A DNA stretch of 64,000 bases from the NCBI GenBank assembly GCA_964234715.1, contig OZ174279.1, one strand, 5' to 3'. Each line of letters begins with the position of its first letter. The stretch's first letter is position 1. The notes below the pieces were generated by a model, which worked only from the letters and a program-made list of their open reading frames with translations, was not told the origin of the DNA and ran no database searches. Source of the stretch: Podarcis melisellensis (lineage: Eukaryota). Of the stretch, positions 4,160-52,458 are shown in pieces. Made by a program: the position numbers and the translations under genes.

Positions 4160-6343
4160 TCCACGCAAAATAGAGTGCAATGGAGTTATGATTGCACATC
4201 ATTAAATCCTGCATGGAGTAGACTTAAGCTGCTCTGTTCAGAGTTCATCCATAAAGTCAGAAGGAAGTCATGTTACATTTCATGAGACTTACTCAGTGGT
4301 AACCTTGTATAGCATTTCAAACTGAGTTTACCTGTTGGATATTCAGGATTAAGCTATTACTGCTTCTCTGTGAGGAATGCACAGGAGTTTGAGGAATGCA
4401 CAAATAGAATTCTTTTAGAACTTGGGATCTGTCAAAGAAACTGACGAGCAGACAATTTTTTTTGACTTTTTCACATTATGTACTATTAACTAAAGGAAAA
4501 CATAGCCACAGGATTTGGTGACAGAAACCATCTTTGGTGACTTTTAAAAAGAAATCCTTTGTGATTGGGGAACTCAATTATTGTTAAATATGATAACTAA
4601 AACCCTCCAAGTTCAAAGAGAGCCTCCTTCTGCATACCAGATCCTGAATGTGACCTAGGGGTGGACGGTTACTTTCATTACTTGTTTGAAACCCTCCCAG
4701 AAGCATCTCGCAGCCTGCCATTAGAAGCAGAATGCTGGAGTTTATGGAACTTTGTCTGAGGTGAGCCAGGAATCAGGCACTATGAGACAAGGTAAGTAAT
4801 CAGAACTGAATAAAAAGTCAGGACCAAGCAACAAATCAGGAGGCAAGGCCAAGAAGCAAGCCAGAAGTCAGGGCCAAAGTATAACTAAAGATACAGGAAC
4901 ACGTCAAGAAAACTATGTTGTTCTAGGAAGACTCAATTGGAACAGGAAGTTTCATACTCCTTCCTGTTGAGGAGGATCCAATGGCCAGCCAGTGCGATGG
5001 TAGATGGAGTCAGTCCAGGACCTGAAGATAATTAAGAAGCTGTCACATGCAGTTCATTGACTCACCACACGGAGCAGCTGTCCAAGAATCTTAACAGCTC
5101 CCATCAGTTTCTTATCCAGGAAGTCTGAGATCTAAGAACTTAATTTCTATTGTCAAGTTTAAATGGGTTTCATTGGAATTTGGAGTCTCCAAGATCACAT
5201 TTGCTCCTGGAATAATATCATTTTAGAGTGATGGCCCCAGTAACCAAGTCTTTTTCATAAAAGGCAGTAAAGCAGAGAGCATGAACACTCATTTCAGCAA
5301 TTGATGGATATTATTTAAGTTAGGGTGGGCTATGTGATTCATGGGGGAAAATATTTAAAAGGATAGGTGAGAGTATGGGACAAATGTAATGCATTCCCAG
5401 GGGCCACACATATTGCTTCATTATATTTGGTGTCCCAGGAGTTAAGAAAGTGCACTACATTGCAACATTATTTTCTCAAAAGGCCCTAATAGGCTTTGCC
5501 TTTTAAAAGCTTCGGAGTAGTTTGTCAGGTTGCAATACATCAAGAAATACACTTGATGCAAGTTCAAAACACACTTTTGTCAATCCAGCCTTTCCCCTGA
5601 AGGGAAGATTGAACTAGAAGTAAAATACCAAGTGTTTCCCTTGGCCGAATGGGAAACTAAAGGTTTTTAGGAGACGGACTGCTCCAACCTAGCTTCCTCC
5701 AGGTGTTTGGGGTTAACAGCTCCCATCATATCCCTGAGCATTTGGCCTTGCTAGCTCTGGCTGATAGGTGTTGCAGTCCAAGTGGAGGTCACCAGGATGG
5801 GGGAAGCTGGTAGGCATTCTTCATAGTTTTTCATGTGTGCACCAGGGGTGGGTGGATACATCTATTTCAGTTTCTCGGTTTCTAATTTTTCCAACCTTTG
5901 GCTCAGTTCTCCAGACTTCCACATCAGCTTGCAATTTTATTTTATTTTTAGAAGTCCTCATGAGAATTTATATACACAACCTTTGGCATGCTTTGATTAA
6001 CTTCTGCAATGTTATATGCTACAAAGATTATAGATAATTTATGATAAGTTAAAAGTAATACAATAATCAGTCAAAAAGGAAACAAAGGACGGAAGTCTCA
6101 ATGTATGGAATTGTTTTTTGTATTTGATGTGATTTTTTCCCCCTCTGGTTCTTTTTGTGGTGAATGGATTCAATATTTAAAATCAATAAAGATTAAATTG
6201 CAAGAAAAGAAAAGGATTTATATACACATAACCTACACATTTTGCATATTATTTTTGTAAAAGCAATTTCCCCCATTATAATGGGTGGGACTTGACTAAG
6301 TTTGACTCGGAATAGATCCTTTGAAATTAATGAACATGACTAA

Positions 6344-7366
6344 ATATTATGAAAATGATGTATAGATGGTACTTAACCCCAGTAAAATTAGCAAAGATCT
6401 ACCATACAAGTGATAATTTATGTTGGAAATGTAAAGAAAAAGAAGGTACCTTTTATCATATGTGGTGGACGTGTCCTAAAGTGAAAGACTTCTGGGAAAA
6501 GATTTATAATGAATTGAAAAAAATGTTGAAATATAAATTTATTAAGAAACGAGAAGCCTTTCTACTTGGAATAATAGGATTGGAAATGCCCCAAAAGGAT
6601 GTTAGATTTTTTTGTATGCCACCACCGCAGCAAGAATCTTATTAGTTAAAATTAGAAATCGCAATGGATACAACAGTAGAAGAATGACAGATGAAGATGT
6701 TCGACTTATTAGAGCTGGCCGACCTTACTGGAAGAATCCGTGATCAGAAAGAAGAGGAACGCCAAGAGCAATGGATGAAATTTAAAGACTATTTAGTTAA
6801 ATATTGTAATACAGTGGTACCCCGGGTTAAGTATTTAATTCATTCCGGAGGTTCATTCTTAACCTAAAACTGTTCTTAACCTGAAGCACCACTTTAGCTA
6901 ATGGGGCCTCCTGCTGCTGCCGCACTACCGGAGCACAATTTCTGTTCTAATCCTGAAGCAAAGTTCTTAACCCGAGGGTTAGCGGAGTCTGTAACCTGAA
7001 GCATATGTAACCCGAGGTACCACTGTATAAGACAAGTAGAAGCTACTTGAAAGTACCAATTTGGCTAAGGAATAGAATATGATTAAACTGTAAAACATTA
7101 TGGGTTTATAAATTATGAAAAGAAGTAAAGATAGTAATTGGAAGGAGTAAATTTTGTTACAAAGAAAATATTGGAAAACTGTTGCAAGGGGATACAGTGG
7201 AATTCAGTTAGGGGGGATTTGAGGAAGTCAGTTTACAATGAAAACTAAATTGGATTCTAGAAGGATTGTGTGTTTATATGTATGTTTTTCTTTTTTCTTT
7301 TTTCTTTCTCTTTTTAGTATGTGATATTTGTTATAAATTTGGAAAATTAATTAAAAAAATTAAAAA
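6344..7366 (+). mobile_element. 5'-truncated L1 (ORF2 C-terminus, 3' UTR, A-rich tail) with 21-bp TSD
   Basis: ORF 6349..6645 has the L1 CCHC motif CWKC..GTFYHMWWTC; TSD gaaattaa(t/c)gaacatgactaa at 6323-6343 and 7367-7387. Confidence 0.9.
6812..7025. mobile_element. Tc1/mariner (Tigger/pogo-like) MITE nested in the L1
   Basis: TIR cagtggtacc...ggtaccactg flanked by TA on both sides; a second copy in opposite orientation at 50145-50386. Confidence 0.85.
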
Positions 7367-11746: not shown

Positions 11747-11980
11747 CTCCAGGCCCAGTTCTTCAACGCACGGGCATGCGATTGCATGGTACCCAAATCC
11801 CATTCTATGAAATCTCAGAAGTGGGGAATATTTAATGGTAAGGTCATGAATTTTTCAAAAACACTCGTGAGACTTTTCAGTTGAAGCCATAGAACCACAC
11901 ACTCATGCACTTGGGTCTACAGGGAATAAAAGATCCAGTCAAAAGGAATCTGCCAGTGAGGGGAAGACTATATAGTTTTT
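11747..11980 (+). repeat. 234-bp direct duplication, copy 1 (left flank of the Ngaro element)
   Basis: ctccaggcccagtt...gactatatagttttt matches 15749-15982 with no difference found by eye. Confidence 0.95.
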
Positions 11981-12374
11981 TGTGTGGCTATTCCCTCCCC
12001 CCCCCCCACAGGTGGAATAAATGAAGACAACGGACACAGAGTTTTTAGGTTAATGGGCGAAAATGGCCACAACTTTATTGATTACAGGAAAGAAGGGTAT
12101 TGGCTTTAGGCATTGGGCCTAACCGACTATCCGGTCTGACCGGGAAGGGTTAAACACCAACAGGGGGAGCCACCCGAGATGCATATCCCTAGGCGCTCCC
12201 CGAGGGGTTACCGCTCGGGGGCGCGCTTTAGGCCCTAGCCTCCGTAGGTTTCGGACGAGGCGTCGCCCCTCGGAGTCCTTTAACGAACTACCCTTCAAGC
12301 ATTGGGGGAGGTGATGGCGTTCCTCCCCCCCAACCTCATCTGCATGATAATACCCCGGCCAATGCCTACCGCCA
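11980..12374 (-). repeat. Ngaro split direct repeat B2
   Basis: Matches 12769-13161 apart from 2 substitutions and a 2-nt poly-C length difference; minus-strand AATAAA near 12074-12079. Confidence 0.9.
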
Positions 12375-12768
12375 AAACCGAGGGAGTTGTGACGATTTGC
12401 TACGAGGTAGGCGAAAAAAACCAAGTGGCTCACCAAACCAGCCAATTAGCCAAATGGAAAAACTCCTACCAGGCCCCTTGCGGCGACCAGCCGAAGCCCA
12501 TAGCAAGGTCAGTGGCAAAACCTAAAGGGCGGGTGGGTGGGAAACCGCGTCGTCTCCAGGGAAGAAAGGTGGCGAGCCAGGGGCTGCCCTGACCTTAAGT
12601 GGCCCTACGAAGGCCCGCCCCTGCCGCCAGCCGATTGGCTGGCGCCACAGGGTATGCTAATTGAGGGAATCCCTGTCTCCCGCGAGGCTGACGCCAGCCT
12701 CGCGAGAGCAAGTGTGGGCGGGGTCGTGATCCCACAACCCCCCCTCCTCCTGAAGGTCGGAAGGGGCA
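12375..12768 (-). promoter_or_regulatory. Ngaro A2 segment with promoter-like boxes
   Basis: Unique segment between the B repeats; minus strand shows CCAAT (~12634-12638), a GC box GGGGCGGG (~12614-12621) and a TTAAG element (~12594-12598) in promoter order. Function is inferred. Confidence 0.55.
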
Positions 12769-13161
12769 TTGTGTGGCTATTCCCTCCCCCCCCCACAGGT
12801 GGAATAAATGAAGACAACGGACACAGAGTTTTTAGGTTAATGGGCGAAAATGGCCACAACTTTATTGATTACAGGAAAGAAGGGTATTGGCTTTAGGCAT
12901 TGGCCCTAACCGACTATCCGGTCTGACCGGGAAGGGTTAAACACCAACAGGGGGAGCCACCCGAGATGCATATCCCTAGGCGCTCCCCGAGGGGTTACCG
13001 CTCGGGGGCGCGCTTTAGGCCCTAGCCTCCGTAGGTTTCGGATGAGGCGTCGCCCCTCGGAGTCCTTTAACGAACTACCCTTCAAGCATTGGGGGAGGTG
13101 ATGGCGTTCCTCCCCCCCAACCTCATCTGCATGATAATACCCCGGCCAATGCCTACCGCCA
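12769..13161 (-). repeat. Ngaro split direct repeat B1
   Basis: Near-identical to 11980-12374; begins about 30 nt after the SGNH stop codon. Confidence 0.9.
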
Positions 13162-13193
13162 CCGAGCCGCAAGCCGGCTCGCCGCCAATACCC

Positions 13194-13769
13194 TCAGACC
13201 TGTAACCAATCCCTAACGCCTTGAAAAATATCTGCCAACCAAATATCATTGCCAGCATCAGATAGATGCACGCCATCCCAGCGATAAAGCATTTCCTTGT
13301 CAAACCGTATGCATGGGTGCTGAATGACCCGACCGCCCCATGCGGCCACTCTACGCGCCACCGTGCGCTCCACAATCCTCCTAGCTTTATTCACTGCCAC
13401 GGGTTTCTCTGCATCCCGCCAACATTGCCTTTCCAGCAAAGATGACCAAATTATTGTAAAGCTTTCATGGGATGCCTCCAACAATTCCAAGTCATTAATA
13501 ATGTTCCACATCAAATCCACCCCTTTTCTATACGCCAGGTCGTTCTCGCCCAGTTGGATGATCAAGGCACTGGGTAGGCCCTCGGCAGCGATTTTCCTGG
13601 ATACAACTGGGAAAAAACTCCTCCCAACGCATACCCCTCCTGGCGATCCATGACAATTTGACCCTGCTGGGTAGCCGTAGCTCCTTATCCCAGCCCCTTT
13701 GTTCTGTGCGCCGCTTTGCCCAATATACGATGCTGTGGCCGAGGATCCACAGTCGAACCACACCAGTAC
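13194..13769 (-). pseudogene. SGNH/GDSL hydrolase ORF of the Ngaro element (one frameshift)
   Basis: Joining ORFs 13528..13761 and 13194..13763 by removing one base from the A6 run at 13612-13617 gives VVRLWILGHS (block I), RGM (II), QLGEND (III), DGVHLS (V). Confidence 0.85.
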
Positions 13770-13831
13770 CTGAAATGAGAGAATCGGGGAACCAGATCAG
13801 GAGGAGTGCCAGGGGGAAAGCTGAGGGGAAT

Positions 13832-14803
13832 TTAGAAGGGCTTCCGGATGTAACCCCGGTATGCGTTAGATTTCCAGTGCCCCATGTCCATAATTCTTTG
13901 CCGGTAAACCCATATGGGCGGCGGTGGTCGCCGCCCCAATGCGAAAGGAGTGTGCGGCGTACTCCTCCTGGGGAAGCCCGATGGCGGCAATTGCCTTGCG
14001 CATGACCCTCGTGAACTGTTGCTTTGAGAGGGCAGAACCATCGGAATGTAAGAAAAAGGGGCCACTAGACTCTGGTCTTACACACAGGTATTTTCTGGCA
14101 ACCTTTACAGGGCAAGGGCCCGCCTTTTGAGTCGCCTGGAGGCGAACCAAGGCTCCCTTGCCAAGCTGATCAGTCTTTGAGCTACGGATTTTTAACGTTA
14201 CATGCGCACTGTCCACTGTTACGTCCTCCAACAATAGCCCCTTAGAGGCTGTGCGGTCCTCACAGACCACTTCACCTATGCGTAGGGCGCCAAAAAATGG
14301 AAAAGAAAACGCTGCTGAAAATAATCTGGCTTCGTATCTTGACCAACACAAGGCCCTCAACTTCCTACGGATTTGGGTGAGTATGTCTAAAGCTATGGGC
14401 CTTCTCCTGTCCAGGCCGTGCGGCCTGGACCTGCGCCAACCCTCAAGCATCTTCCGCACCACGAACTGCGAACAGGGATCAACGGGAAATAAGGTTTTAG
14501 AAAAGAAGGATATAGCAGCTGAATGAATATTGAGGGTTTTGGGGGCCCGTCCAAGATCTCTAAGGTGGACCAAATACTCTATGACTTCCGACTTGGACGG
14601 TGGCCTGCCCGGCTTGAATCGCTCCTTTTTGATGCGGAAGGATGTGAAGTCTAGCCATGCCTTATTATACGATCTCAGGGTAGAAGGCGCTAGCGTGGAC
14701 AATACTCCCTTTATTGCTTCTCGTTGCCAATATTCCAGAGGTGCACCGGGAATGGTTGCGGCTGCTGCTGCGCATCCGGCGCCAATGCGCGAAAGCGTTC
14801 CAT
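13832..14803 (-). pseudogene. Tyrosine recombinase of the Ngaro element (C-terminal frameshift)
   Basis: ORF 13866..14702 has LAPST, LRIGE, SKTDQ and HSFRIGAAT; GHWKSNAYRGYIR with the catalytic Tyr lies in another frame (ORF 13832..14065), with the shift near 13895-13900. Confidence 0.9.
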
Positions 14804-15748
14804 CTGGAAACGAGATAGGGCATCCGCGATGTTATTATCAATACCGGGGACAAACTTGGCTGAAGCGTGAAGGTTCAACCGCAAGCAGGAAAGGACAAAT
14901 TACCGTAAAAGGGACGCTACTCTGGGTGAACGTGACGATTGTTTATTCAAGACTGACACGACCGCTAGATTGTCCGTCCCGAAACAGACCCTATGGTTTT
15001 TAAACTGGTCTTCCCATAAGTGGATTGCAACTACGATGGGAAAGAATTCTAAAAATGTCAAGTCCCGTAGTATTGGTTTACCTTGCCAGGAGGGAGGCCA
15101 GTGCTGAGCACACCACTGGCCACTGAGCACCCTATCGGCATAGATTTGTCTATGGAATAAGCCCCCTCAAATCTAAAAACCTTGCCATATAAATTCCTCA
15201 GGGTGAATTGGCAGGAGACGGAAAGTCCACTCAATGTCGCACTTTGCCAAGAGCGCGCCCCTGCTGAACCTGCGCATACGATTTATAGCCTGATCAAAGG
15301 AGGCATATTTCACAGAATAAGGCTTCTGTGGTATTGCATCATTGACTGAGCCACCTCCAGGGTAGGGTAGGTTGTCGATCATAGGATACTCTCCTGGAGT
15401 CTATGGGGGGACAATGCCTAAAGGTGAAATGAGTAAACCCGCTATAGGTGGCTCCCTGAAGGGACCGGCCACCCTCCCAGCCAGAAATTTCTTTTAATTT
15501 CTTTTTTGCAATAGCTGGCATTTCCCAAACTGGTTTTTTTTTGGGGGGGGGTCCCTGAGTTAGGGGGTAATGAACGAGGATCTTGAAGCCATAAGAGAAA
15601 CTCTTTCCCAGGGTACTTTGCTGCCTCTATTTTAGGGTATTTATCGAGAAGGGTTCTAAGAGGTGAGAGCTTAACAGAAGAGAACATCACAGTCAAGGGC
15701 CAAATTCATAGCAGCTTGTGGTTGTTCCTTTTGGCGGGTCTTTGAGCT
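14711..15748 (-). pseudogene. Reverse transcriptase/RNase H remnant of the Ngaro element
   Basis: SVNDAI...YASFDQA...AKCDI...FRLLPIHP (RT N-half), LTFLEFFPIVVAIHLW...TDNLAVV and VPGIDNNIADALSRFQMERFRALAP (RNase H); several frameshifts, and the RT core is deleted near 15120. Confidence 0.85.
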
Positions 15749-15982
15749 CTCCAGGCCCAGTTCTTCAACGCACGGGCATGCGATTGCATGGTACCCAAAT
15801 CCCATTCTATGAAATCTCAGAAGTGGGGAATATTTAATGGTAAGGTCATGAATTTTTCAAAAACACTCGTGAGACTTTTCAGTTGAAGCCATAGAACCAC
15901 ACACTCATGCACTTGGGTCTACAGGGAATAAAAGATCCAGTCAAAAGGAATCTGCCAGTGAGGGGAAGACTATATAGTTTTT
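15749..15982 (+). repeat. 234-bp direct duplication, copy 2 (right flank of the Ngaro element)
   Basis: Matches 11747-11980 at an offset of 4002 bp. Confidence 0.95.
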
Positions 15983-16455
15983 CGCAGGCAAAGGAAGGCA
16001 GAAGCAAAAAGAGAATATTCTGGTAAATAAAACCTGTGAATGTGAATAAAATACAGGAACTAGGGCCTGCCACAAACTGTTGTGGCATGGAGGGTTCCCT
16101 AGTTAGAATTCCAGTGATTCCATTAAATTCACCTCCTCCTGTTTTACACTCACATACAGTCAGTCAGCACCCCAAAACCACTGAATACACTTGGCTTTTA
16201 AAACAGGTGGGGAGGGAGTTTCCATCAGACATTTCCCCCAAATATTTGTTTGTAGTTCTGCAAATGTTGTGCCTTTCTCTTCCCCCTCCCCGCTCTGCCT
16301 GCTAATATCTCTATCTTTCATGCAGGTGGTTTGCAGTAAAAATCACACTGAAGTTGCAATCAATATTTTAGGAGTTCTAAATCCCCATTCCAGCAAAACA
16401 AAAAATAAAAATAAACAGTAAGACTCAGCCACTTGGCATTATCTATAATTATAAT

Positions 16456-17291
16456 ATTTTTTTAAAAAAAAATTATTCATTTTTCAAACACATAATTAAA
16501 AACAAACACAACACAAAACAAAACAAAAACATACACAACATTAAACATATACCGTCTTCCCCATACCTCCCTTTCGCTGCATCCTTATTCCACAATTCTT
16601 CAGCAACCCTTTAGTCAATTTATCTATTAGTTCCCTTTCATTAAATTTCCTTAAACTTATTAGTTACAGCTGTAATTCTCTACTTCTTACCCCTTGACAT
16701 CTTAACACTCCTCAATTTTACAACAGTTTTTAAGATATGTTTTAAATTTCTTCCAGTCCTCTTCCACTGTCTCTTTCCCCTGGTCTCGGATTCTGCCGGT
16801 CATCTCTGCTAGTCCCATGAAGTCTGTCACCTTTGTCTGCCATTCTTCCAGAGTAGGTAGTTCTTGCATCTTCCAATACTTTGCCAGAAGAATTCTTGCT
16901 GCTGTAGTAGCATACATAAAAAAAGTCCTATCCGTCTTTGACACCAGTTGGCCAACCATGCCCAGGAGAAAAGCCTCAGGTTTCTTAGGAAAAGTCCACT
17001 TAAGGACCTTCTTAATTTCATTATAGATCATTTCCCAAAAGGCTTTAATCTTTGGGCAGGTCCACCAAAGGTGGTAAAAGGTACCTTCAGTCTCATTACA
17101 TTTCCAGCATTTATTATTGGGCAAATGGTAAATTTTTGCAAGCTTGACTGGGGTCATGTGCCACCTGTAAATCATTTTCATTATGTTCTCTTTTAAGGCA
17201 TTACATGCCGTGAACTTAACACCAGTGGTCCATAACTGTTCCCAGTCAGCAAACATAATGTCATGACCGATATCCTGTGCCCATTTAATCA
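16456..17291 (-). mobile_element. L1 3' part (ORF2 C-terminus and 3' UTR), interrupted by the copia element
   Basis: ORF 16702..17292 has CWKC..GTFYHLWWTC and is homologous to 6349..6645; T-rich tail at the left end. Confidence 0.9.
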
Positions 17292-17655
17292 TGTCCCATT
17301 AAACTTTAATTAGTTTAATGTAAATGCCCAGTGCACTTCCTTCTTTAAAAGTCTCACCACGGCAGAGGATTTCGCGCAGCAGCTAAGAAGGGCAGGAGAG
17401 GCAGCATCTTCCCAAAAAGGAGTCCTGGAGCATGCGGTTTGTAAATCAAAAATAAGGTTTATTTACAAAACACCAAAAAACAATCCTGGCGACGAACCAC
17501 ACATCTCAGCAAAACACACACCCAAAAGGAGAAGGGGGAGAACAAACAAACAGGGGGACTATTTATACAGACTCATGTTCCTGGAAGCCTAATGACCTCC
17601 AGCTGCTCAGTGATTAGAGCGTTTCTGCTACTCTTTTAACCCTTTGATAGCAACA
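17292..17655 (-). repeat. Copia 3' LTR
   Basis: tgtcccatt...gatagcaaca, identical by eye to 22102-22465; minus-strand AATAAA at 17458-17463. Confidence 0.95.
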
Positions 17656-17668
17656 CCCCCTCTTGCTC
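17656..17668 (-). other. Copia polypurine tract
   Basis: Minus strand GAGCAAGAGGGGG directly abuts the 3' LTR. Confidence 0.85.
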
Positions 17669-17690
17669 GTAACACTGAGCTGTACCAACC

Positions 17691-20498
17691 TTAATACAAA
17701 TTTAAACCTGAACAGAAACATTTATGAGATTGCGGACTCAAAGCTTTTGTAAAACCGTCTGCGAGATTTTCTTGGCTTGGACAATACTTTAGTTCAATTA
17801 AACCTTGTTTTACACTTTGGCATACATTTTGATAACGGATATCCAAGTGTTTTGTGTGCGCCTTGAATTGACCTGATTTAGCTAGTTTAATACAAGGTTG
17901 ATTGTCTTCCCACACTCTGATAGGTAGGGAACATTCTCCAAACAATTCTTGTACCAGTTGCTTATAAAATTCCAGTTCTCTACATATATCTGATAACGCA
18001 TTGAACTCAGATTCAGTTGAACTTAAAGCTATAAGTGATTGTTTTCTTGATCTCCAACCAATTAGTGCATTTCCAAATTTTATCGCCATTCCTGACACTG
18101 ATTTTCTATCTGGTCCAGCATCTGCCCAACTGCTGTCGGCCCAACATTCAAGTTGTGTGCTGCCCTCTGCTGATAGTTTTAAGCGAAAGCTTTTGGTAGT
18201 TTGGAGATACCTTAAAACTCTTTTTACTCCTTGCCAAGCATGCATTGATGGTTTTTCAGCTTGTCTACACAGCATGTTGACAGCATATGTTATATCGGGC
18301 CGAGTCCACTGTGCAATGTGGAGTAGACTGCCTATCGCTGACTGGTAAACCCCGGGATTACAGAACTCTGCCTTTTGCTCAGTTTGCGCATCCTTTGTGT
18401 AACTTAACTCCATTGGGGTTTTAACACCAGCACAGTTGTTCATTTTAAACCTTTCCAGCAACTGCTGGATTTTAGCTTCTTGGCTAAGCCAATAGTTACC
18501 ATTTTCATCTTGCTGAATTTTAACTCCTAGATAAACAGATACATTGCCTAGTGATTTTAACTGAAACCTTTCTCCAAGCTTTGTGGCAAATTGTTGTGCA
18601 AGTTTATCATCCTTTCCACTGTATAATAAATCGTCAACAAATATCAAAACTGCTTCTTGTTCACATCCCGAGCCTTTTAGATAAAGACACGCATCTGCTG
18701 CGCTCTTTCTGAACCCCATGCTCTCTAGAGCATCGTTTAAGCAGGAATTCCAATTACGGGCGGACTGTTTCAACCCATAAATGGATTTGTGTAGGCGCCA
18801 GACCTGGTTTGGCTTGTCTCCTTCAAAGCCTGGTGGTGGTGTCATATAGACTTCCTCCTGTAAGTCTGCATTTAAATAAGCCACATTGACATCAAAATGA
18901 AACAGCTTATTACCCTTCTTAGCTGAAGAGGCTAGAAGCATTCTTAATGACTCCGATCTTGAAGTAGGGGCATAGATTTGAGAATAGTGAACACCTTTGC
19001 GCTGCGAAAACCCTTTTGCAACTAGTCGGGCTTTATATTGCAACTCTTCAGTAGTTGTGGGCTTTAAACGATATACCCATCGACAACCTACAGCTTGTTG
19101 CCCTTTCGGAAGCTCTGTACTTGTAAACACACCGAGAGACTTCATTGAAGCCATCTCTTTTTCCATTGCTTCCTGCCACTTTACGGCTTCTGAGCTTGGA
19201 AGCTGTTGTACTTCCATATAGCTTTCTGGCTCACACTGTGCCATATTTACGTATACACTTGTCACCTTAAACCGCTCTGGTGGCTTGCCCTTCGTGGCGC
19301 GTTTTGACCTGCACAATTGCTCCTCTTGTGCCCCCTCTGACCGTTGGCTGTCAGAATCTGTCTCAGACTTTATGTCTGGACGTGCCTCTAGGGATAAAGA
19401 CCTCCGTTTAGATACCTCCCTTGGGCTTGGTGTTGCAGGTGACCTGCTTTGCTTTTGCTGTCTGCTAGGCCTACTGACTGGCGAAGTTGGAGCACTCCTA
19501 GATTCTGGCTTTTCTACCTTAGGAGAAGAACCTCGTGCCTGATCAGAATCTGCATCTGAACCATGTGCACCATCCCCTTCTGGCTCATCACTCTCTGGAC
19601 TTTCTTTCTCAGCATGAATGCCTAAATCATCTCTCAAAATGTCAGGGTTAGCGTGTAAGTGAGTCCATCCGGACTGCTCACAAAAATCAGCGCTCCTACT
19701 GAGGACCACTCTTGTAGTATCCCCACCTGGGTCCACAAACCTCCAAGATTTGGCATGTGGTTCGTACCCGCAAAAGATGAGTTTCCTAGCCCTTGGACTT
19801 CCCTTTTTCCTTAACGCTTTTGGGATAAGTACATAGGCTTGAGATCCAAACACCCGAAAGTAATTAACTTTGGGCTTCTTCCCATATAAAGCAAAATAAG
19901 GCGTAGTATCAATTACCGAATTATATACTCGGTTCAGAATATGAGTAGCCGCCTGCCAGGCTTCCGCCCAGTAACTTTGAGGAAGTTTAGCATCAAACAA
20001 CATAGAGTTTGCCAACTCTTGCAGAACCCTATTTTTACGTTCGGCCACGCCTCCTTCTTGGGGGGAATAAGGTGTAGACAGACGATGCTTAATTCCCTTT
20101 TTCTTAAAGAAATTCTGCAACACAGACCCGGTAAATTCTGACCCTCTGTCTGTCTGAAAAGCAAGTACTCTAGTACCGAATTCAAGTTCTACCGCATGAA
20201 CCCAATTTTTAACTGTTTCTGCAGTATCTGCTTTTGTTTTGAGAGGAAAAAACCATGTAACCTTTGTTTTGTCATCCGAGAGACACAGTGCATACTTTGA
20301 ACCTCCCATGCTAGCAACAGGCATTGGGCCACATAGGTCCATATGCACAAGTTGGAATACTTTGTCAGATTTCCTATCTGAACTGGGATAGCTGCATCTA
20401 TGAACCTTCGCACTTTTGCATGCAGTACAATCCAAATACTTAGTACATTTGTTCAATTTGCACCCTTCTGATAATTCAGGTTGCCTTTTAACATACTG
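17691..20498 (-). CDS. pol: Copia pol: integrase, reverse transcriptase, RNase H
   Basis: CTAC zinc motif; HMDLCGP / TDRGSEF / GVAERKNR (DDE); FDVNVAYL, YGLKQSARNW, FVDD (RT); WADSSWA, STESEF, EDNQ, TKHLDIRY, LADGFTK (RNase H). Open without stops; the ORF-track start at 20456 is a TTG, not a true initiator. Confidence 0.93.
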   Translation of the reverse strand, partial: QYVKRQPELSEGCKLNKCTKYLDCTACKSAKVHRCSYPSSDRKSDKVFQLVHMDLCGPMPVASMGGSKYALCLSDDKTKVTWFFPLKTKADTAETVKNWVHAVELEFGTRVLAFQTDRGSEFTGSVLQNFFKKKGIKHRLSTPYSPQEGGVAERKNRVLQELANSMLFDAKLPQSYWAEAWQAATHILNRVYNSVIDTTPYFALYGKKPKVNYFRVFGSQAYVLIPKALRKKGSPRARKLIFCGYEPHAKSWRFVDPGGDTTRVVLSRSADFCEQSGWTHLHANPDILRDDLGIHAEKESPESDEPEGDGAHGSDADSDQARGSSPKVEKPESRSAPTSPVSRPSRQQKQSRSPATPSPREVSKRRSLSLEARPDIKSETDSDSQRSEGAQEEQLCRSKRATKGKPPERFKVTSVYVNMAQCEPESYMEVQQLPSSEAVKWQEAMEKEMASMKSLGVFTSTELPKGQQAVGCRWVYRLKPTTTEELQYKARLVAKGFSQRKGVHYSQIYAPTSRSESLRMLLASSAKKGNKLFHFDVNVAYLNADLQEEVYMTPPPGFEGDKPNQVWRLHKSIYGLKQSARNWNSCLNDALESMGFRKSAADACLYLKGSGCEQEAVLIFVDDLLYSGKDDKLAQQFATKLGERFQLKSLGNVSVYLGVKIQQDENGNYWLSQEAKIQQLLERFKMNNCAGVKTPMELSYTKDAQTEQKAEFCNPGVYQSAIGSLLHIAQWTRPDITYAVNMLCRQAEKPSMHAWQGVKRVLRYLQTTKSFRLKLSAEGSTQLECWADSSWADAGPDRKSVSGMAIKFGNALIGWRSRKQSLIALSSTESEFNALSDICRELEFYKQLVQELFGECSLPIRVWEDNQPCIKLAKSGQFKAHTKHLDIRYQNVCQSVKQGLIELKYCPSQENLADGFTKALSPQSHKCFCSGLNLY

Positions 20499-21837
20499 AA
20501 AAATTAATATGCCCTAAACGGCGGTGCCATAAATGAACACAAGAATTATGGGTAGGCGTGTTCACACAACCAGCATGAACCTGTTCAACTTCATCTGGAC
20601 TTGTCTCAAAATAATATAACCCATTTCTGCATTCCACCTGCAAAAGAGATACGTTATTCTTTGAAATAGTGCAAACCCCATTTTCAAACACAGTTTTAAA
20701 CCCATTTCTATCAAGTTCTGACACAGACAAAATACACCCCTTCAGTCCCTTTAGCACGTAGGCATCAATTTCTGTTTGCAAACAATTCAAGAACACTGTG
20801 CCTACAGTCTCTAAGGAACGTTTAGTTGAATCTGCCATTGTCACAACTTTAGGGGTTAGCAAATGTCTGCAATTCTGCAAACGTACACTAGATGGCGCCA
20901 CCAGGTGGTGAGATGCACCACTGTCGATCAACCAGCGTAGATTGCTGCCTTGGCCACGCCCTTGCATCAACGCCATTGCTGAAGCCATGTGCTGTGTGCT
21001 GTGGGAGTAGCCACGACCTCCTCCTCTTCTTCGACGTCCCCTGGAACTCCTTGTCTGGTAACTAGGGGTAACGGCCTTGTTGCTGTCTTGACCAGGTTCA
21101 CGTGTGCAATTCCTGATTAGATGGGAAGGGGAACCACAGCGAAAACAGTGTCTAGCTGCAAAAGCATTTACTGTGTGCTCAAACTCAGCATCAACACTCT
21201 TAGGCACAGCATAACTCCCCTTTAAAGACAAACCTCTTTCTCTTTGCCTTTTATCCTGTTCATCCGCAAGCCGAGAAGAAATGTATTCAAGGGTTAATTC
21301 AGTTGAAGGCATAGCTTCCAAAGTTAGAGCTAGAGTCTCATAGCTTTTATCAAGAGAAGACAACAATATGTATGACTGCTGCTCCATAGAGAAAGGAATG
21401 CCCAGCTGTCTTAGTTGATTAAAGGCAGACACCATTTTGGCAATATGTTCTTTCACACACGCTCCCGGTTGGAGACGTAAATCAAACAAACATCTTGTAG
21501 CATGGATCTTGGCCCCCGCAGTGTTTCTGGAATTTAACCGCTGCAGAACCGTCCAGACCTCATGCGTGTTCTTTAACTCAGAAACATAAGGCATTTGCTC
21601 TGGTCCCACTGCCAAAACTAGTAGACCTTGGGCTTTCCTGTCGCGTTTCTGTGAAGCTGCTGCTGCTGCTTTGGCTTCTGCAGACGCGTCTGCAGCTGCC
21701 TGTAAAGGCGGTGCTTCAGTACAGCTCCACAACTCTTTTGCTTGCAACCAAACCCTTACTCTAGCCTTCCAATCTTGCCAATTTTTCCCATTGAGTCGCG
21801 TAAACGGGACAGTAAAACTTTCCTGGGACTCTGCCAT
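20488..21837 (-). CDS. gag: Copia gag, protease and start of integrase
   Basis: LNGKNWQDW, YILLSSL, zinc knuckle CFRCGSPSHLIRNC, protease WLIDSGASHH, HLWHRRLGH; ends at a 1-nt frameshift. Confidence 0.93.
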   Translation of the reverse strand: MAESQESFTVPFTRLNGKNWQDWKARVRVWLQAKELWSCTEAPPLQAAADASAEAKAAAAASQKRDRKAQGLLVLAVGPEQMPYVSELKNTHEVWTVLQRLNSRNTAGAKIHATRCLFDLRLQPGACVKEHIAKMVSAFNQLRQLGIPFSMEQQSYILLSSLDKSYETLALTLEAMPSTELTLEYISSRLADEQDKRQRERGLSLKGSYAVPKSVDAEFEHTVNAFAARHCFRCGSPSHLIRNCTREPGQDSNKAVTPSYQTRSSRGRRRRGGGRGYSHSTQHMASAMALMQGRGQGSNLRWLIDSGASHHLVAPSSVRLQNCRHLLTPKVVTMADSTKRSLETVGTVFLNCLQTEIDAYVLKGLKGCILSVSELDRNGFKTVFENGVCTISKNNVSLLQVECRNGLYYFETSPDEVEQVHAGCVNTPTHNSCVHLWHRRLGHINFSVC

Positions 21838-22092
21838 CCTCCCTGGGGCTTAGGAACGATACTCACACACCTGTAGACCGTCTCCCAGCTGCTGAGGTGG
21901 CTCCTTGAGGAATCAGACGTCTTCCAGCGAGTACAAACTGCGCAGTGCCTCTTTAAAACTTTTCTAGGCACGTTGCAGGACTCAAGCTGCTTTGGAGGCT
22001 TTCGTTGTCGGCAACCGCTTCTGTCTTCACTCCAGTCCTTGCATAAATCACTCTGAACTGCTCTCCTTATCTCCTTCTTGACGTACAAACAA

Positions 22093-22101
22093 CCCATAAC
22101 C
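22093..22101 (-). other. Copia primer-binding site (internal tRNAiMet type)
   Basis: Minus strand GGTTATGGG directly after the 5' LTR CA, matching the start of the Drosophila copia PBS GGTTATGGGCCCAG. Confidence 0.8.
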
Positions 22102-22465
22102 TGTCCCATTAAACTTTAATTAGTTTAATGTAAATGCCCAGTGCACTTCCTTCTTTAAAAGTCTCACCACGGCAGAGGATTTCGCGCAGCAGCTAAGAAG
22201 GGCAGGAGAGGCAGCATCTTCCCAAAAAGGAGTCCTGGAGCATGCGGTTTGTAAATCAAAAATAAGGTTTATTTACAAAACACCAAAAAACAATCCTGGC
22301 GACGAACCACACATCTCAGCAAAACACACACCCAAAAGGAGAAGGGGGAGAACAAACAAACAGGGGGACTATTTATACAGACTCATGTTCCTGGAAGCCT
22401 AATGACCTCCAGCTGCTCAGTGATTAGAGCGTTTCTGCTACTCTTTTAACCCTTTGATAGCAACA
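22102..22465 (-). repeat. Copia 5' LTR
   Basis: Identical by eye to 17292-17655; minus-strand TATAAAT at 22371-22377. Confidence 0.95.
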
Positions 22466-22782
22466 AATCATAGCTGATTTCACCGTTTCATCCTGTGTAT
22501 TCCATTTCAACAGCAAGTTATACATTCTAGACAAATTCTTAGTATTGGGTTCTAACAGTTCTGTTTCTAACTTTGACCTCTCCTTCTGAAATCCTATTTT
22601 CCTGTCCTGCTTAAATGTCTCATTTATCTGATGGTAATGTAGCCAGTCTCGAACTTTGAACTTTAGTTTCTCATAACTCTGAAGTTTAAGCTTCTCACCA
22701 TCTTGTTCTAGGATTTCACAGTATTTTGGCCAATTAGAATCCATATTAAGTTTTTTCACCGCCTTAGCTTTCATTGGTGACA
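22466..22782 (-). mobile_element. Upstream part of the same L1 ORF2
   Basis: ...TQDETVKSAMI reads through into KWAQDIGHDIM... once the copia and one TSD copy are removed. Confidence 0.88.
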
Positions 22783-22789
22783 ATATCAG

Positions 22790-23103
22790 GTAGGTAGCCG
22801 TGTTGGTCTGATGCAGTNNNNNNNNNNNNNNNNNNNNNNNNNNNNNNNNNNNNNNNNNNNNNNNNNNNNNNNNNNNNNNNNNNNNNNNNNNNNNNNNNNN
22901 NNNNNNNNNNNNNNNNNNNNNNNNNNNNNNNNNNNNNNNNNNNNNNNNNNNNNNNNNNNNNNNNNNNNNNNNNNNNNNNNNNNNNNNNNNNNNNNNNNNN
23001 NNNNNNNNNNNNNNNGAGATAGCACCTTATACACCAACCAAGTTTGTTCTAGTATAAGCTTTCGTGTGCGTGCACATTTCTTCAGATACACACTTCTTCA
23101 GAT
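22790..23103. mobile_element. Penelope-like element terminal fragment spanning the gap
   Basis: 'ggtagccgtgttggtctg' and 'gcaccttatacaccaac...agctttcgtgtg...ttcttcagata' resemble reptile Penelope terminal repeats (recognised from memory, not aligned). Confidence 0.55.
22818..23015. other. Assembly gap (198 N)
   Basis: Run of N. Confidence 1.
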
Positions 23104-32948: not shown

Positions 32949-35125
32949 TAAAATGAAGCCTCAGTTTTAAAAATAGGGGCAGGAAATTTTCTTGTGAAGT
33001 GCTAGCACCCACAGCTATGCATAGCTGATGGAAGAAGCTACTCAAGCCAGTGCAGGTTGCAGAGAGAGGAGCAGAGTTCAAAAGAAAGAATTGGCAAATA
33101 TTGAAAAGGCAGGGGCTTAGTAAGGCAAAATACTGGTCAGATGGTAGACTACAGATGAGGGATTAGATTCTGAAAGCTTTCCATAAAATAAATTAAAATC
33201 CCTGAAGGAAGAAAACTAGCAGAGCAAAGAGAAGGCAGGTGTGTAACCTTTACCTACAGTGCTAGCTTTCTATTTGCAGAGCAAGGACCTTCACAAATCC
33301 ATGGGCCTCTGGAACCACTATCCCTGCCTAATTGCACAGGAAGCACATCAGGTAATCTCCAGGACAGGTGGCTGGCCTGTTGAGGTTCTCCATTCTTTGA
33401 ACAAGGGAAGCAGGGCTTGGGAGGGGTGGGGTGGAGGCCATGGGTCAAGTAGCCTCAGTTCACCTTCAGCCGTCCCTTGGAGCTGTCCATGGTCCTGCAA
33501 CCACCAACCTGCGTTGCTCAGCTGTGCCTCATGGACTCCTTGTCAGGGCCAGGATAGGACACAGTACAGACAAGAGGAAAGAGGCTGTTTCCCCCCTCAC
33601 ATATCTGACTGATGAACCACAGATATAATCAGATGCACACACATATGTGCATCTGAATGCCGATGAACTGTGAAGTGTGTTCCCAGCCACATTCTGACAC
33701 AATTCTTTATAATTAACTATGGTGCCTGGAAACAGGCAGTCAGGTCATGTATTCATAGCAGTGACCAGAGGAGGACTGACTGCTTGGAGGAGCACAGAGA
33801 GAAGAAACACACCTGCGCCAGCATAACCAGACACCTGCACCTGCCCCAGCTGCAACAAAACATGTCTCTCCCATTTCAATCTCTACAGCCACAGCAGGCA
33901 CTGCAATTCTCCAATGGTTTGAATCCATCTCCAAAGAGCATTCTTCCATTGTCTCCAGAGAGAGATGGATTCCAGCAACATGCAACTAGAGATGGATGAA
34001 GGTGTTTATAGATAACACACTGACAGGTAAGGTCCTGCAATATGGAAAGGTTGTCTTTTGGTGCAGTCTCTAATAAAATCCTCTCCCAAAAGTGAAAAGC
34101 TTCCCATGAGCTCATGACACTTCCTTAGTTCTACATGTACCATGGAAAATGTTGCAGACACATTTTTCTAATAGTTCTTTGAACCTCACAAGGATGAGAA
34201 CTTTCCAAACTTTGCTAAGAACTAATGCACGGACTTTGCCCAAGCACTGATTGCAAGCAAATGTATTAAACCCTTCTTATAACTCCTGAAACCAAACTGT
34301 GCCATTTTGCCCTGAAAATCCATTTCTGCCTAGCAGCTATATGCTGCAAGAAGCTATATTTTTTAAATAATAATAATAATACAGTGGATTTTGTATAATG
34401 TACAAACCTACAGTTTGCTATACCCATTGTCTCCTAAAAATAGCAATCCATTTCTCAGGTCAAGAGCGTTAACTGCTCATTCCCTGACTGTCTCATTAAT
34501 GTTTAAATACGCAGCTGGCAAAGCAATGTTTTAGAGCAGATTAACCCATTTACACATTTTGAAACACAGCTACTTTCTACTGTGCTAGCAAATCTGATTT
34601 TTCTAATATTGAGCTCAGGTCGAGATGTGTATGAATTAGTGAACGTCAGATCAGTTTGTAGTAGCTTCTTCTCACATCCCTAAACATAATCATAAAAGTC
34701 AATAAGAACCTAGTTGCAGTTATCAGATTTTTTTTTAAAGAAATTGATCAGCCTTCCCTTTCATTTCAAAGAGAAATTGCTTAGAAAGTGGACTGGAAGT
34801 GAAAACCCAGGTGGTGAATATTCTCAGCACAGATATTGTGCTTTCAGTGCCTCAGGGACCCATGGGTAGCCTTAAGATTTCAATGCAGTGACCATGCACA
34901 AAATTAAACGCGTATAGGCTCAGAGTTTACAGTTGATTCTTGGATGATTCCTGGATTTTGTCACTGAGAATGTATTTCAAATCTCCATGCACTGGATTTT
35001 GAGTGGTTTGTATTCAAGAAGCACTTCCATTTTCTTTCCTCCACACATGCACTCTGTGTACCCTCAAAAGCAGCCCCCTGTGTACCCTCAAAATCATCTC
35101 CAGAGGGTTGGAAGACCCTCTAGAG

Positions 35126-35261
35126 CAGGCATAGGCAAACTGGGCCCTCCAGATGTTTTTGGCCTACAACTGCCATGATCCCTAGCTAACAGGACCAGTG
35201 GTCAGGGATGATGGGAACTGTAGTCCCAAAACATCTGGAGGGCCGAGTTTGCCTATGCCTG
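35126..35261. mobile_element. Palindromic hAT MITE (136 bp)
   Basis: TIR caggcataggcaaact/agtttgcctatgcctg; 8-bp TSD ctctagag (35118-35125 and 35262-35269). Confidence 0.9.
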
Positions 35262-38200
35262 CTCTAGAGGGTCTTCAAACCCTCTGGAGATGATTTTGAG
35301 GGTACACAGGGGGCTGCAAGGGAGAGGAAATGAAAGGTCCATTCTGCTAGTTCAGAAGGCTAGTGTACCAAGGAGTGGTGCATGATAATATTAAATTGGT
35401 TCTTCACAGCATGAGACATATGGCTCTGGAAGCGCAAGGATTTTGTTAGGTCCACATTTTTAAGTGAACAATATCTGCACTTCCTCACGGACTCACACAT
35501 GGCTTGGTATGCAATTACCCACCAGCTTTCACACTTCTTGGAATTTCCAGATACAGTTCTCAGCTCAGACAGCATACCAAAATTGGTATGGTTGCATGTT
35601 TTTGACAAAGCTACATACTCTAGAGTAAAATGCATTTTATTTCATGAAAAATAAGTTAAAAAATAATGCAAATTTCCATGTAGAACCAGAATTGAATGAA
35701 CATATAATTGAGCACATGGAATAATTGACACACACCAGAAACACACTGATCCACCCACTCATCCTTATCTATATATACGGTACTTATAGCTGTAGAAACT
35801 GTCAATTGACAGTGTTCCTGATGATGTGAACTAAAGTCTCTGGAAGGTGATGCATGATACATCTGTTGGTTCCTCAAGACTTTGGAATATTCAGCCATTA
35901 TGCGTAAGAATGTTCAAAGCCAGTATTTTTGGGGTAGGGAGTAGGGAAGATTTTTTTTCTAGGGCATGTCATAGACCTGGAATGAAAAGAAGACCACATT
36001 CACTCCTTTTTCTGATACTTGTCCTAATGCAGCAGTAAGGCAGCTAAACTATGAAGTAGCCCTCAGAGAAAATTGTATGTCAGTAGACTTTGTTAATATT
36101 AAGGAAACTTTATTTCTCCCCCTGCAATAACAATTTAATTTCAAAGGATTCAGATCAGCATTAGATTTCAATTACACCTTGGGGCTTAGGTTCCACAACA
36201 GCAATGCTAAGAACTATTGGGCTTCCATTTCACTTTACTTGATTGGGGTTTTTTTAGGAGGAAGTAATTCCTATTGATTTGCATTGCTTATTCACTTTCT
36301 AATTTGTGTTTTCCATTCCCTTTGTCAGGTAGGATGACTAAAAGCTGAACCCTATCTGCATAATCCAAACTTTGAACAGAGATTCTTACAATTGCACTGG
36401 GGAGCTGATCTACCTGGCCGATAATTTGTGGCAAAGGCCCCTGTTCCCTCCCCCAAGTACCTACGCCTGGGGGGCCCACAGGCACCACAGCACACCAAAA
36501 CACCCCTTGTGGTGCCTGTCAAGGCCCTCAACCCCTCCCAATTTACCTATCTATTGACTTTTTAGGAGGGTGCCTTTTTGCCTGTAGTTTGGGGATGGTT
36601 TGAGTATTGCCAGTTTCCCTGCATAAAATGGGGATTTTGTGGCTGCCAGCAATAGCTTTTTCATTTTCCAAAGCTATCACTCCTCTAAAAGGGGTATCAC
36701 ACTAGCACAAAAACGTCACAAAGGATACTGGCATAGAAGTTGGTTCAAAAATTCCTGCAACAACTTGGAAACCCAGCCATATGGAAGTTATTTTTGGATA
36801 CAATCACCTATGAACCAGCATGATGGGTGTTTGGGGATCTCCACAATGGGATCTGTGAAGTGTTGACATGCTGGGAGAGCCTAGATGCCTAGAGATTCTA
36901 TGTCTTCCATTTCCCCCAACTCTTCTGTTCCCCATTCCACCTTCCCTGCTGCCTTATTGAACTATTGCCTCTAACAGTATCCTTTCCAATGCAATGTATA
37001 CAATGGTTGTTTAAGTTTACAGACTGGCTCATCCATCATCTGAGTGTGTAAGTATTCTGTGTAAATTGGTTTCAGTAACTGCACTGACATAATCCCATGG
37101 TTTGTTGCAACGTAGTTACGGAATAAAGTTATATGCTGTTTGGCACTAGTCAATAGTCATTCTTCAAACACATGGCAACAGCTACCATCACCCATACCAG
37201 CAACAACTTGAGACAGCTATTTGATATGCATATTCCTACACTGCAGTGAGGATGCCTCTGCAAAACTGGTGGCTATTCCAACTGCCTCAGATCCTAATGC
37301 CAGTGTGAACATTTGTACACGTGCTGAGTTTCCTTTCTGTATCTTCACTGGTGGATTCAGAACGATGGGTTTAAGGGCACATGCTACCACAATTAACAGT
37401 GTTCCCAGCACACACATTTCCAACACCATCAGGAGAGTCTGAAAGAATATAGCTCAAATCTGGCATGCTGGATGTATCAGCAGAAATGTGTACTGGAAGC
37501 TTGTGGTCACAGAATAGTCTGCTTAGTTCAAATCATTTAATACACCACCCTATCACTTCTTGGACCTCATCCCATCTTCGAATTCCTAATACTGTACCAC
37601 AGTGGTGGCAGGATGCACAATGGTAGAATTCTTCTTTTTAAACAACTCTTACTGAAGCCCTTTTCAGAGTCTATACCTTTCAATCTTAAGCATGGTTTCA
37701 CTCCCTTCCTACATTCTTCAAGCCTTCTCCTCCAGACTCTCGCTTCCATCAAGGTCTTCTTTTTCACTTGTTTTTACTCTGTTTTGTTTTTTAGGCATCC
37801 TGCATCTGGTCTCTTAGCTTCTGGAACTTTCTCCCACTCAGCTTTCTAGTCCCATTTCACACAGCACCTCCACCCAGAGCATGTATGAAGTATTCCCCCC
37901 CTCCAAATGACAAGTATTCCTTCTCATAGAAGATGGACCGTGAACAGTTTGTTTCTTACCCATTTCTTTCCCAGGAAGTTAGAATGTTTGTGCATATTCT
38001 GTAACACCAAGCAGCTCAAGTAACTGGTGTTAGGGGAACAATGAGAGGAGCACAGCATGTCTTCCTGTAATTAAAATAATATAATGTATTGCTATTGGTA
38101 TGCATGTTTGATGGAACAGCATATATATCAGAAGAGAAGAAGCAGGGATGTCTTCTATCTCTGAAACTATTTAAAAGTTTGATATGATGCTGCAAAGCTA

Positions 38201-39410: not shown

Positions 39411-40442
39411 TAGGGTTACTAGACATCCCCGGTTCCTGCGGACAGTCCCTGGATTTGCAAATCTGTTCCTGGGAAATATGGCAGCAGCAGCCTCAGCAGC
39501 CCGGAGCCAGCCTGGTAGCACAGTTGGCTCTGGCTGGCTTCAGGAGCTGCTGACTGTCATGGCGCCCACCATTTTTCCTCTCTGGAAGTCCCCATATGAT
39601 GTGTTGTGTGCGCAACCCATCATATGGGGACTTCTGGAGAGGAAAAATGGCGGGTGCCACGGCCGCGAGCAGCTCCTGAAGCCAGCCAGAGCCAACTGCC
39701 AGAGCCAACTGCGCTACCAGGCTGGCTCTGGGCTGCTGACTGCTGCTGTTGCCACCACTGCCGAAGGGGAACTGGGGACGTCTGGCAGTACAGATCTCCT
39801 GCCCCCTTCTCCCTTTGTTTTGACTGATCAGGGGAGGCTCGGGAGTTGTGGTCTGGTGGCCATTGCCCTGTTTTTTTAAAACTCTGCATATTTATGTTTC
39901 ACAGGGTGTGAAAGAAGAGCTTTGCACCTTTATACATTATGCTTGTGTGCTTGGGCCTGGGGTCTTTTGCCTCACCATCCCCACTACTTACACCCTGTTG
40001 CTTTGTTGTTGTTTAGTCGTGTCCAACTCTTTGTGACCCCATGGACTAGAGCACGCCAGGCACTCCTGTCTTCCACTGCCTCCCGCAGTTTGGTCAGACT
40101 CATGTTTGTAACATCGAGAACGCTATCCAACCATCTCATCCTCTGTCTCCTTGTGCCCTCAATCTTTCCCAACATCAGGGTCTTTTCCAGGAAATCTTCT
40201 CTTCTCATGAGGAGACCAAAGTACTGGAGCCCCAGCTTCAGGATCTGTCCTTCCAGTGAGCACTCAGGGCTGATTTCCTTCAGAATGGATAGGTTTGTTC
40301 TTTTTGCAGTCCATGGGACTCTCAAGAGTCTCCTCCAGCACCATAATTCAAAAGCATCAATTCTTCGGCAATCAGCCTTGCTACTCAGCTTCAAAGGGGG
40401 AGGGGTGTCCCCGGATTCATTGAAAAAAATCTGGTAACCATA
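39411..40442. mobile_element. Non-autonomous hAT element with an internal palindrome and a nested BovB
   Basis: Ends tagggttactaga / tctggtaaccata; exact 8-bp TSD ctttaagt (39403-39410 and 40443-40450). Confidence 0.85.
40001..40378 (-). mobile_element. BovB (RTE) LINE 3' fragment
   Basis: KADCRRIDAFELWCWRRLLRVPWTA...LEKTLMLGKIEG...RWLD, with a (CAA)n tail. Confidence 0.92.
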
Positions 40443-49600: not shown

Positions 49601-49965
49601 CAAAAACATTCTGTAAATCAGTTCCACCCCCTTTTACTGGAGATTTTGTCACATTAAACTCAATGGGTTCACTTCCTAGTAGACATGTAGGATTACACTG
49701 TGTCATTTTTTGGTCTCAAAATTATCTTTATTCTTATCACCCGAAGATGCTTTTTCTGTATGTAAAAATCTTTCCATAGGAGCCATTTTCTCCCATGCTG
49801 ATCAAAAGTCTCAGTTGCTTTTTCAAACAATACACATGTAAGCAAGAAGGTAAAGCAGATGTCTGATCAAAATATATGGATACTCCATTTTCGGGGCTTA
49901 AAAATAGGTTCTCTGGAGGAGGAGATCAAAGATCAGATGCTTCCAAAGCATCTCTTGGTTTACAC

Positions 49966-50101
49966 CAGGCATAGGCAAATCCGGCCCTCCAGATGTTTTG
50001 GGACTACAACTCCCATCATCCCTAGCTAACAGGATCAGTGGTCAGGGATGACAGGAATTGTAGTCTCAAAATATCTGGAGGGATGAGTTTGCCTATGCCT
50101 G
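49966..50101. mobile_element. Palindromic hAT MITE, same family as 35126-35261
   Basis: Same TIRs and length; 8-bp TSD gtttacac (49958-49965 and 50102-50109). Confidence 0.9.
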
Positions 50102-50144
50102 GTTTACACCTTTGGGCTGGCTGCTAGTACAACAGAACAAAATA

Positions 50145-52370: not shown

Positions 52371-52458
52371 CTTAATAAGGGGAATGGCACGTGTTAGCTG
52401 CTAGTGACTAAGGCTGCAATCCAAACCCCACTTACCTGAAATTAAGCCGCACTGAATA

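Follow-up and report, generated by a model that had tools for sequence, protein, structure and literature searches.

A Ty1/copia element with identical LTRs in Podarcis melisellensis very probably belongs to a multicopy family resident in lacertid lizards

Structure of the element

The window (the whole stretch of 64,000 nucleotides of Podarcis melisellensis that was analyzed) contains a full-length Ty1/copia element of 5,174 bp, located on the minus strand at positions 17292 to 22465. Its two LTRs are 364 bp long, have TG...CA ends (5′ LTR, 22102-22465; 3′ LTR, 17292-17655; both minus strand), and were identical at 364/364 positions. In the alignment of the pair, identity ended exactly at the TG...CA termini, with no extension on either side. 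The 5′ LTR carries, on the minus strand, a TATAAA (22372-22377) and an AATAAA (22268-22273), which are consensus matches only. Next to it come a primer-binding site (PBS) of 9 nt (22093-22101) and the 5′ leader (21838-22092), while at the opposite end a polypurine tract (PPT) of nine purines (17656-17664) abuts the 3′ LTR, all on the minus strand. The pol stop lies 35 bp from the 3′ LTR, which leaves no room for env, and this gene is absent. The classification as Ty1/copia is based on the gag-PR-IN-RT-RH order (integrase before reverse transcriptase [RT]), on an RVT_2-type RT that groups with copia RTs, and on the direct TG...CA LTRs, the 5-bp target site duplication (TSD), and the position of the PBS beside the 5′ LTR and of the PPT beside the 3′ LTR.

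The pentamer AATCA was found on both sides of the element (17287-17291 and 22466-22470). In 550 reads from uninterrupted L1 copies (run X24, see below), it was present once and, therefore, it is a true duplication. An earlier description of this DNA, made from the letters alone (here, the sequence-only reading), had listed LTRs without differences, a perfect TSD, a PPT, and a PBS; these were all borne out, although the PBS is short.

Insertion into an L1 fragment

Both flanks are pieces of L1 on the minus strand. The piece downstream of the insertion (16480-17291) comprises the C terminus of ORF2 (16705-17289) and an approximate 3′ tail and is 87 to 91% identical to four Podarcis muralis L1 proteins, and the upstream one (22466-22783; 80 to 94% identical) is a 5′-truncated ORF2 that is contiguous with the first. 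In 4/4 P. muralis L1 proteins tested, the two flanks joined at the same residue, with 80 to 94% identity. The copia element interrupts an older, 5′-truncated L1 fragment. L1 matches numbered 44 among 314 candidates, with the best at 90 to 91% identity; 40 of them came from Podarcis, a proportion that annotation bias toward this genus may have affected, but identities of 90% indicate a lacertid host.

Ends of older, related L1 ORF2s, together with a weak zf-RVT match, were observed at 6343-6786 (68%) and 51722-51843 (80%, both versus the host L1). A run of 198 N (22818-23015) lies 350 bp to the right of the copia element, at the 5′ end of the L1 fragment, and the sequence around it resembles what is presumably a short Penelope-type remnant. 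Outside the three elements of the window, none of the 172 stop-free stretches of at least 70 aa gave a Pfam match to a host gene (one gave a weak zf-RVT match), a search that short exons would escape.

Coding capacity and the frame break

The coding span of 4,147 bp consists of two stop-free frames on the minus strand with one break near 20500. The first frame (20488-21837; 449 aa from the ATG) holds gag, a CCHC knuckle (21106-21147), the protease DSG (20914-20931), and the His pair of the integrase, and Pfam recognized in it copia gag, the pre-integrase domain, and, in the protease region, a Pol beta-barrel. The second (17691-20513; 940 aa from stop to stop) holds the integrase CxxC and core, an SH3-like domain, a spacer, RT, and RNase H. 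Here, the Pfam matches were the integrase catalytic core with its D,D(35)E (rve; 20037-20363; E value, 3.1e-13), the SH3-like (GKGY-type) C-terminal domain of the integrase (PF25597; 19665-19886; E value, 4.2e-21), and the RT (RVT_2; 18408-19130; E value, 5.5e-71), in which FVDD replaces YVDD, as it does in four of the five closest proteins (P0001, P0002, P0004, and P0265). RNase H is represented by the motifs ADS, TESEF, EDNQ, KHLD, and ADGFTK (17745-18143). The sequence-only reading had announced all catalytic motifs, and motif search and Pfam agreed with it: the CCHC, the protease DSG, the integrase HH...CC and D,D(35)E, the RT D...DD, and the RNase H D-E-D-D were all present, according to motif patterns that we take to mark the catalytic residues. 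When the two frames were searched separately, they covered residues 7 to 505 and 515 to 1357 of P0004, a Podarcis lilfordi copia polyprotein of 1,376 aa; therefore, no domain is missing. This protein represents a family separate from that of the window element (36% identity over gag-protease and 56% over pol).

The single lesion that the sequence-only reading had counted in about 4.1 kb was also confirmed. It is located at a short homopolymer run (20495-20505, minus strand) within the integrase zinc finger, after its HH half and before its CC half. Because the break sits inside this domain, the copy as assembled, which has no unbroken gag-pol frame, cannot make integrase, RT, or RNase H and is non-autonomous. 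A programmed frameshift was rejected on the grounds that the site is not at the gag-pol border and that the main forms of the family lack the break. None of the main contigs of the three contig runs shows it, nor do 35 of 47 X24 reads; the other 12 reads were not counted as differing from the window form at this position. Given that contigs lose rare or single-copy variants, a true copy-specific lesion and an assembly error are both possible.

In another reading, to which we give somewhat less than an even chance, the animal carries a fully intact element and the break is a homopolymer error of the assembly. The homopolymer at the break, the lack of the window form in every contig run, and the presence in the window of another young element that is also frame-shifted, with repeat copies that differ in homopolymer length, all speak for it. 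The LTRs, with several homopolymers, nevertheless agree perfectly, and no break interrupts the L1 frames to either side. The loss of single-copy variants from contigs and the 12 X24 reads also weaken this reading, and true lesions often arise from RT slippage at homopolymers.

Primer-binding site

The 9 nt next to the 5′ LTR are complementary to nt 31 to 39 of tRNA-Met, in its anticodon arm, a site of the half-molecule type. We fetched 127 metagenome loci by means of an anticodon-arm motif that we took as characteristic, and ARAGORN called 120 tRNAs in 114 of them. There were 117 tRNA-Met(CAT) among these calls, and 117/117 paired with the 9 nt that follow the 5′ LTR, a match that is built in by the search motif, so that the test concerns only the tRNA call and the position. 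In the commonest form of tRNA-Met (72 nt), nt 39 is the last to pair; this form begins with A, a hallmark of initiator tRNAs. In Drosophila copia, pairing also ends at nt 39, with a site of ca. 14 to 15 nt versus 9 here (8 of them constant). Among family copies, constancy is limited to the first 8 nt, as the ninth base takes all four letters. The spacing from the PBS to the leader also varies by one base among copies (22092-22101), and the constant primer site is unusually short.

Half-molecule priming by initiator tRNA-Met has been reported for Drosophila copia (PMC10275265) and, in plants, for some copia lineages (PMC6317226). Drosophila copia shares with the window element the single gag-pol layout and the use of the 5′ half of initiator tRNA-Met as the described primer (PMC10275265), although it is placed in a different clade (PMC11889832). 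For Mtanga elements, the copia clade discussed below, our literature search found no published description of the PBS. Priming by the 3′ CCA end of a tRNA was rejected (0 bases match). A further possible pairing of 8 nt, between a box near 21947 and nt 10 to 17 of the tRNA, was not counted, as by our own estimate ca. 0.5 chance matches are expected in the 500 bases scanned. No tRNA gene was found within the 64-kb window.

Relatives and clade

Three protein searches, with the best 120, 150, and 120 matches listed, provided 353 proteins for the tree, 15 of which had an organism name. In 350 of the 353, the alignment extended over at least 330 residues. Five proteins had 60 to 65% identity and the next had 48%; among the best matches listed (120 + 120 + 150), none was more than 65% identical. 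The five closest are P0004 and the proteins P0001 to P0003 and P0265, which have the same domain order and length as the element and are 60 to 65% identical to it over RT-RNase H. The invertebrate relatives with an organism name reached 42% identity at most.

Trees were built from 90 of 351 rows and, in a second version, from 31 rows, in both cases with the Mtanga reference not among the rows. In the 31-row tree, the element falls in a clade (support, 100/100) with P. lilfordi P0004, P0001 to P0003, and P0265. This clade is nested in another (100/97) with Podarcis raffonei copia, and then in a third (100/100) with elements of Anopheles, Aedes, and Trichuris. The element is placed on its own branch of 0.27 substitutions. 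An RT/IN phylogeny was among the checks that the sequence-only reading had proposed; the tree of 31 rows puts the element among Podarcis copia, and the wider clade mixes lizards with mosquitoes and a nematode. The nearest relatives with an organism name are Podarcis copia, and P0001 to P0003, P0265, and others could hide a close non-squamate relative.

We consider that the element probably belongs to the Mtanga clade. Its lepidosaur host and its grouping with mosquito and Trichuris elements follow the pattern described for Mtanga. It resembles the Mtanga elements of Lepidosauria reported in PMC11889832 in the squamate host, the copia RT/RNase H, and the mixture of lizard, mosquito, and Trichuris muris elements, a likeness drawn from description and neighbors. 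According to the same source, all 750 amniote elements were placed in Mtanga, together with mosquito and Trichuris elements, and vertical persistence and ancient transfer to sarcopterygians were left standing as two hypotheses (PMC11889832).

The sequence-only reading had described copia as essentially absent from mammals and birds, known in squamates, and sparse in vertebrates. The first two statements agree with the literature, where copia is reported missing from mammals and birds (PMC4350176) and present in 23 of 24 squamate genomes (PMC11889832). The third fails for this host, since squamates account for 66% of 49,920 copia copies in 263 animal genomes, and P. muralis has 1,004 copies in 44 clusters (Zootoca vivipara, 304) (Klai et al. 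2025, PMC11889832). Along similar lines, the tuatara has >1,140 full-length Mtanga-like copies (bioRxiv 10.1101/867069), frogs carry Mtanga-like elements (PMC4131045), and in hydrophiine snakes copia has recently expanded and is expressed (PMC8872380). In the corn snake, a copia family of 85 copies, proposed to be active, is behind two color alleles (amelanistic and Stripe) one base apart (PMC4657000, PMC11948899). By description, this family resembles ours in its youth, its squamate host, its near-identical copies in the tens, its confinement to related species, and the proposal of present-day activity; it differs in its snake host, its length (5,832 versus 5,174 bp), and its documented gene-disrupting insertions, none of which is documented for the window element (PMC4657000, PMC11948899). 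Among the papers listed for copia with Podarcis and for lacertid elements, no title or abstract start described the present family, and it may be contained in the clusters of PMC11889832 or in Repbase. The element is a further family within a copia group already abundant in squamates, ordinary rather than exceptional.

Family copies in public sequencing runs

Twenty of the 24 sequencing runs listed by a DNA-directed search (3 organism labels, 7 studies) carry 43 to 87% of the sampled words of the element, equivalent to a divergence of ca. 0.5 to 2.7%; run X21, with a share of 0.00, is not taken as evidence. Four of the 24 (X1, X13, X15, and X24) were aligned to positions 15990 to 22101, with X14 and 10 contig runs of organism B left out. 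The ratio of main internal contig depth to unique-flank (15990-16389) depth was 178 to 200 in X15 and 403 to 448 in X1, and the raw reads of X24 gave an element depth 27 to 42 times that of the unique flank. These are orders of magnitude, since contig depth counts copies poorly and the X1 value is halved if the flank contig represents one haplotype. The family is multicopy, with roughly tens to hundreds of copies in the four runs. In X13, the smallest data set, the whole element was contained in one contig of 4,858 bases. The lizard L1 family is also there and, therefore, X13 is a related lizard; an invertebrate holder of the family, for which this run was the only candidate aligned, was rejected on this ground.

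The main form differed from the window copy by 0.15% in X15 (5/3,274), 0.99% in X1 (35/3,545), and 2.56% in X13 (117/4,565). The 40 difference rows shown, chosen by support from 392, include 3 in the flank, 2 non-coding, and 35 coding. Of the latter, 23 are synonymous, against an expected fraction of 0.28 to 0.31 (P of 4e-6 to 2e-5; dN/dS ratio of ca. 0.2). This synonymous excess among the listed differences indicates that the family has replicated under purifying selection. In X24 and X13, divergence was far higher in the LTR than in the interior: in the former, depth drops over the LTR (17292-17655) at a 90% cutoff, and in the latter, the LTR is partly unalignable, with a segment of 77 bases replaced.

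X15 and X1 share one organism label, and yet their dominant variants differ by ca. 1%, each at hundreds of times the flank depth. At 9 listed sites, the other three runs differ from both the window and X15; differences found in X1 only account for 8 sites. The simplest reading of these variants would be separate amplifications in two lineages, and the pattern could serve the study of independent bursts within one species. If sister insertions are polymorphic, they would provide lineage-specific insertion markers for wall-lizard populations, and the family would be a candidate source of large-effect alleles, as corn-snake copia is for color.

Age and activity

The absence of differences in 364 positions bounds the LTR divergence only at <0.82%. 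At the P. muralis rate of 1.98e-9 per site per year (PMC8760935), this limit corresponds to an insertion age of roughly 0 to 2 My. Among the coding sites, 8 distinguish the window from every one of the four runs, with 5 synonymous and 3 nonsynonymous changes (P of 0.04 to 0.06 versus neutrality), a pattern that leans toward inheritance from a replicating parent and hence toward a young insertion. No listed contig spans the insertion junction, and both flanks are multicopy L1. None of the 24 runs listed by the DNA-directed search was recorded as RNA.

The sequence-only reading had held that the family is currently or very recently active. Recent activity is supported by the identical LTRs, the synonymous excess, and the abundance of near-identical copies, in whose main form the break is missing (stop codons may occur elsewhere in the main forms, beyond the 40/392 difference rows); current activity does not follow, as the LTR clock allows ca. 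2 My. An insertion some 0.5 to 2 My old, already fixed, in a family that is now quiet would accommodate this clock, and 0/364 differences has a probability of 0.33 even at 0.15%, the distance of the copy to the main form of X15. This older insertion is, in our view, unlikely, though not negligible: the 5 synonymous and 3 nonsynonymous window-specific changes are more easily reconciled with descent from a replicating parent than with decay in place, and the main contigs are free of bubbles for up to 883 bp at ca. 190-fold flank depth.

Vertical persistence or horizontal transfer

We consider it very probable that the element is a member of a lacertid-resident, multicopy Ty1/copia family (probably Mtanga), inserted within the last ca. 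0 to 2 My, and that the family has passed vertically among related lizards, constrained by purifying selection, and has recently amplified separately in different host lineages. Its cycle would begin with transcription from the 5′ LTR and the synthesis of one gag-pol polyprotein, with the gag-PR-IN-RT-RH order observed here and a single frame in the main forms suggested by the reads and by the single-frame relatives. For minus-strand DNA, the primer would be a 5′ half-molecule of initiator tRNA-Met that terminates at nt 39, as the complementarity and the example of Drosophila copia suggest, and plus-strand synthesis would presumably start at the PPT. The integrase would then join the product through a staggered cut of 5 bp, the duplication of which is present at the locus.

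In X1, the divergence of the element (0.99%, 35/3,545) was not lower than that of the host flank (0.75%, 3/400; Fisher P = 1), with a 95% interval for the flank of 0.15 to 2.2% in this one run. The rough dS values (2.2% to X1 and 5.7% to X13) were also not below the host flank. Recent transfer predicts an element less diverged than its host, and therefore this result, from one comparison with a yardstick of 400 bp, is contrary to it. L1 divergence (ca. 8% in 5 listed X13 pieces) was rejected as a host yardstick because the pieces are paralogues. The sequence-only reading had proposed the family as a candidate for horizontal acquisition, a proposal left unsupported by the 97 to 99% identity in related lizards, the divergence not below that of the flank, and the Podarcis copia as nearest named relatives.

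A horizontal entry into the lineage ancestral to these lizards, with another squamate or a terrestrial invertebrate as donor and with later amplification, would agree with the isolated branch of the element, its 60 to 65% identity to the five closest relatives, and the mixture of lizards, mosquitoes, and a nematode in the wider clade. Horizontal acquisition by sarcopterygians is also one of the two hypotheses offered for Mtanga (PMC11889832). We nevertheless judge such an entry very improbable, since no listed match exceeds 65%, the named invertebrate relatives are even more distant (42% at most), two Podarcis families bracket the element in the tree, X13 is a related lizard by its L1 family, and the dS values are not below the host flank. 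Equally little credence is given to a composite in which the family would have entered lacertids horizontally before the sampled split and would be transposing today, with independent bursts to hundreds of copies from different masters in lineages of one species and with priming on as few as 8 constant bases.

Other features in the window

A young and apparently 5′-truncated piece of a tyrosine-recombinase retroelement is found at 11747-15982 (minus strand). We take it to be of the Ngaro/DIRS type from a recombinase-like frame (13866-14831) and a hydrolase-like frame (13194-13796), with no Pfam match. It contains a 99% identical split repeat (11980-12374 and 12769-13161) and is flanked by an exact direct duplication of 234 bp (11747-11980 and 15749-15982), far beyond the usual TSD length, for which L1-driven retroposition or an assembly artifact are possible explanations. 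A stop-free stretch of 195 aa (39984-40571, minus strand), without a Pfam match, resembles what we assume to be the 3′ end of a BovB/RTE LINE. The window also includes a 300-bp repeat family (at about 44950, 54700, 59400, and 60450), short palindromic (MITE-like) elements (35070-35317, 39479-39754, 49957-50110, 58413-58536, and 61584-61774), and a perfect two-copy tandem repeat of 110 bp (52149-52372).
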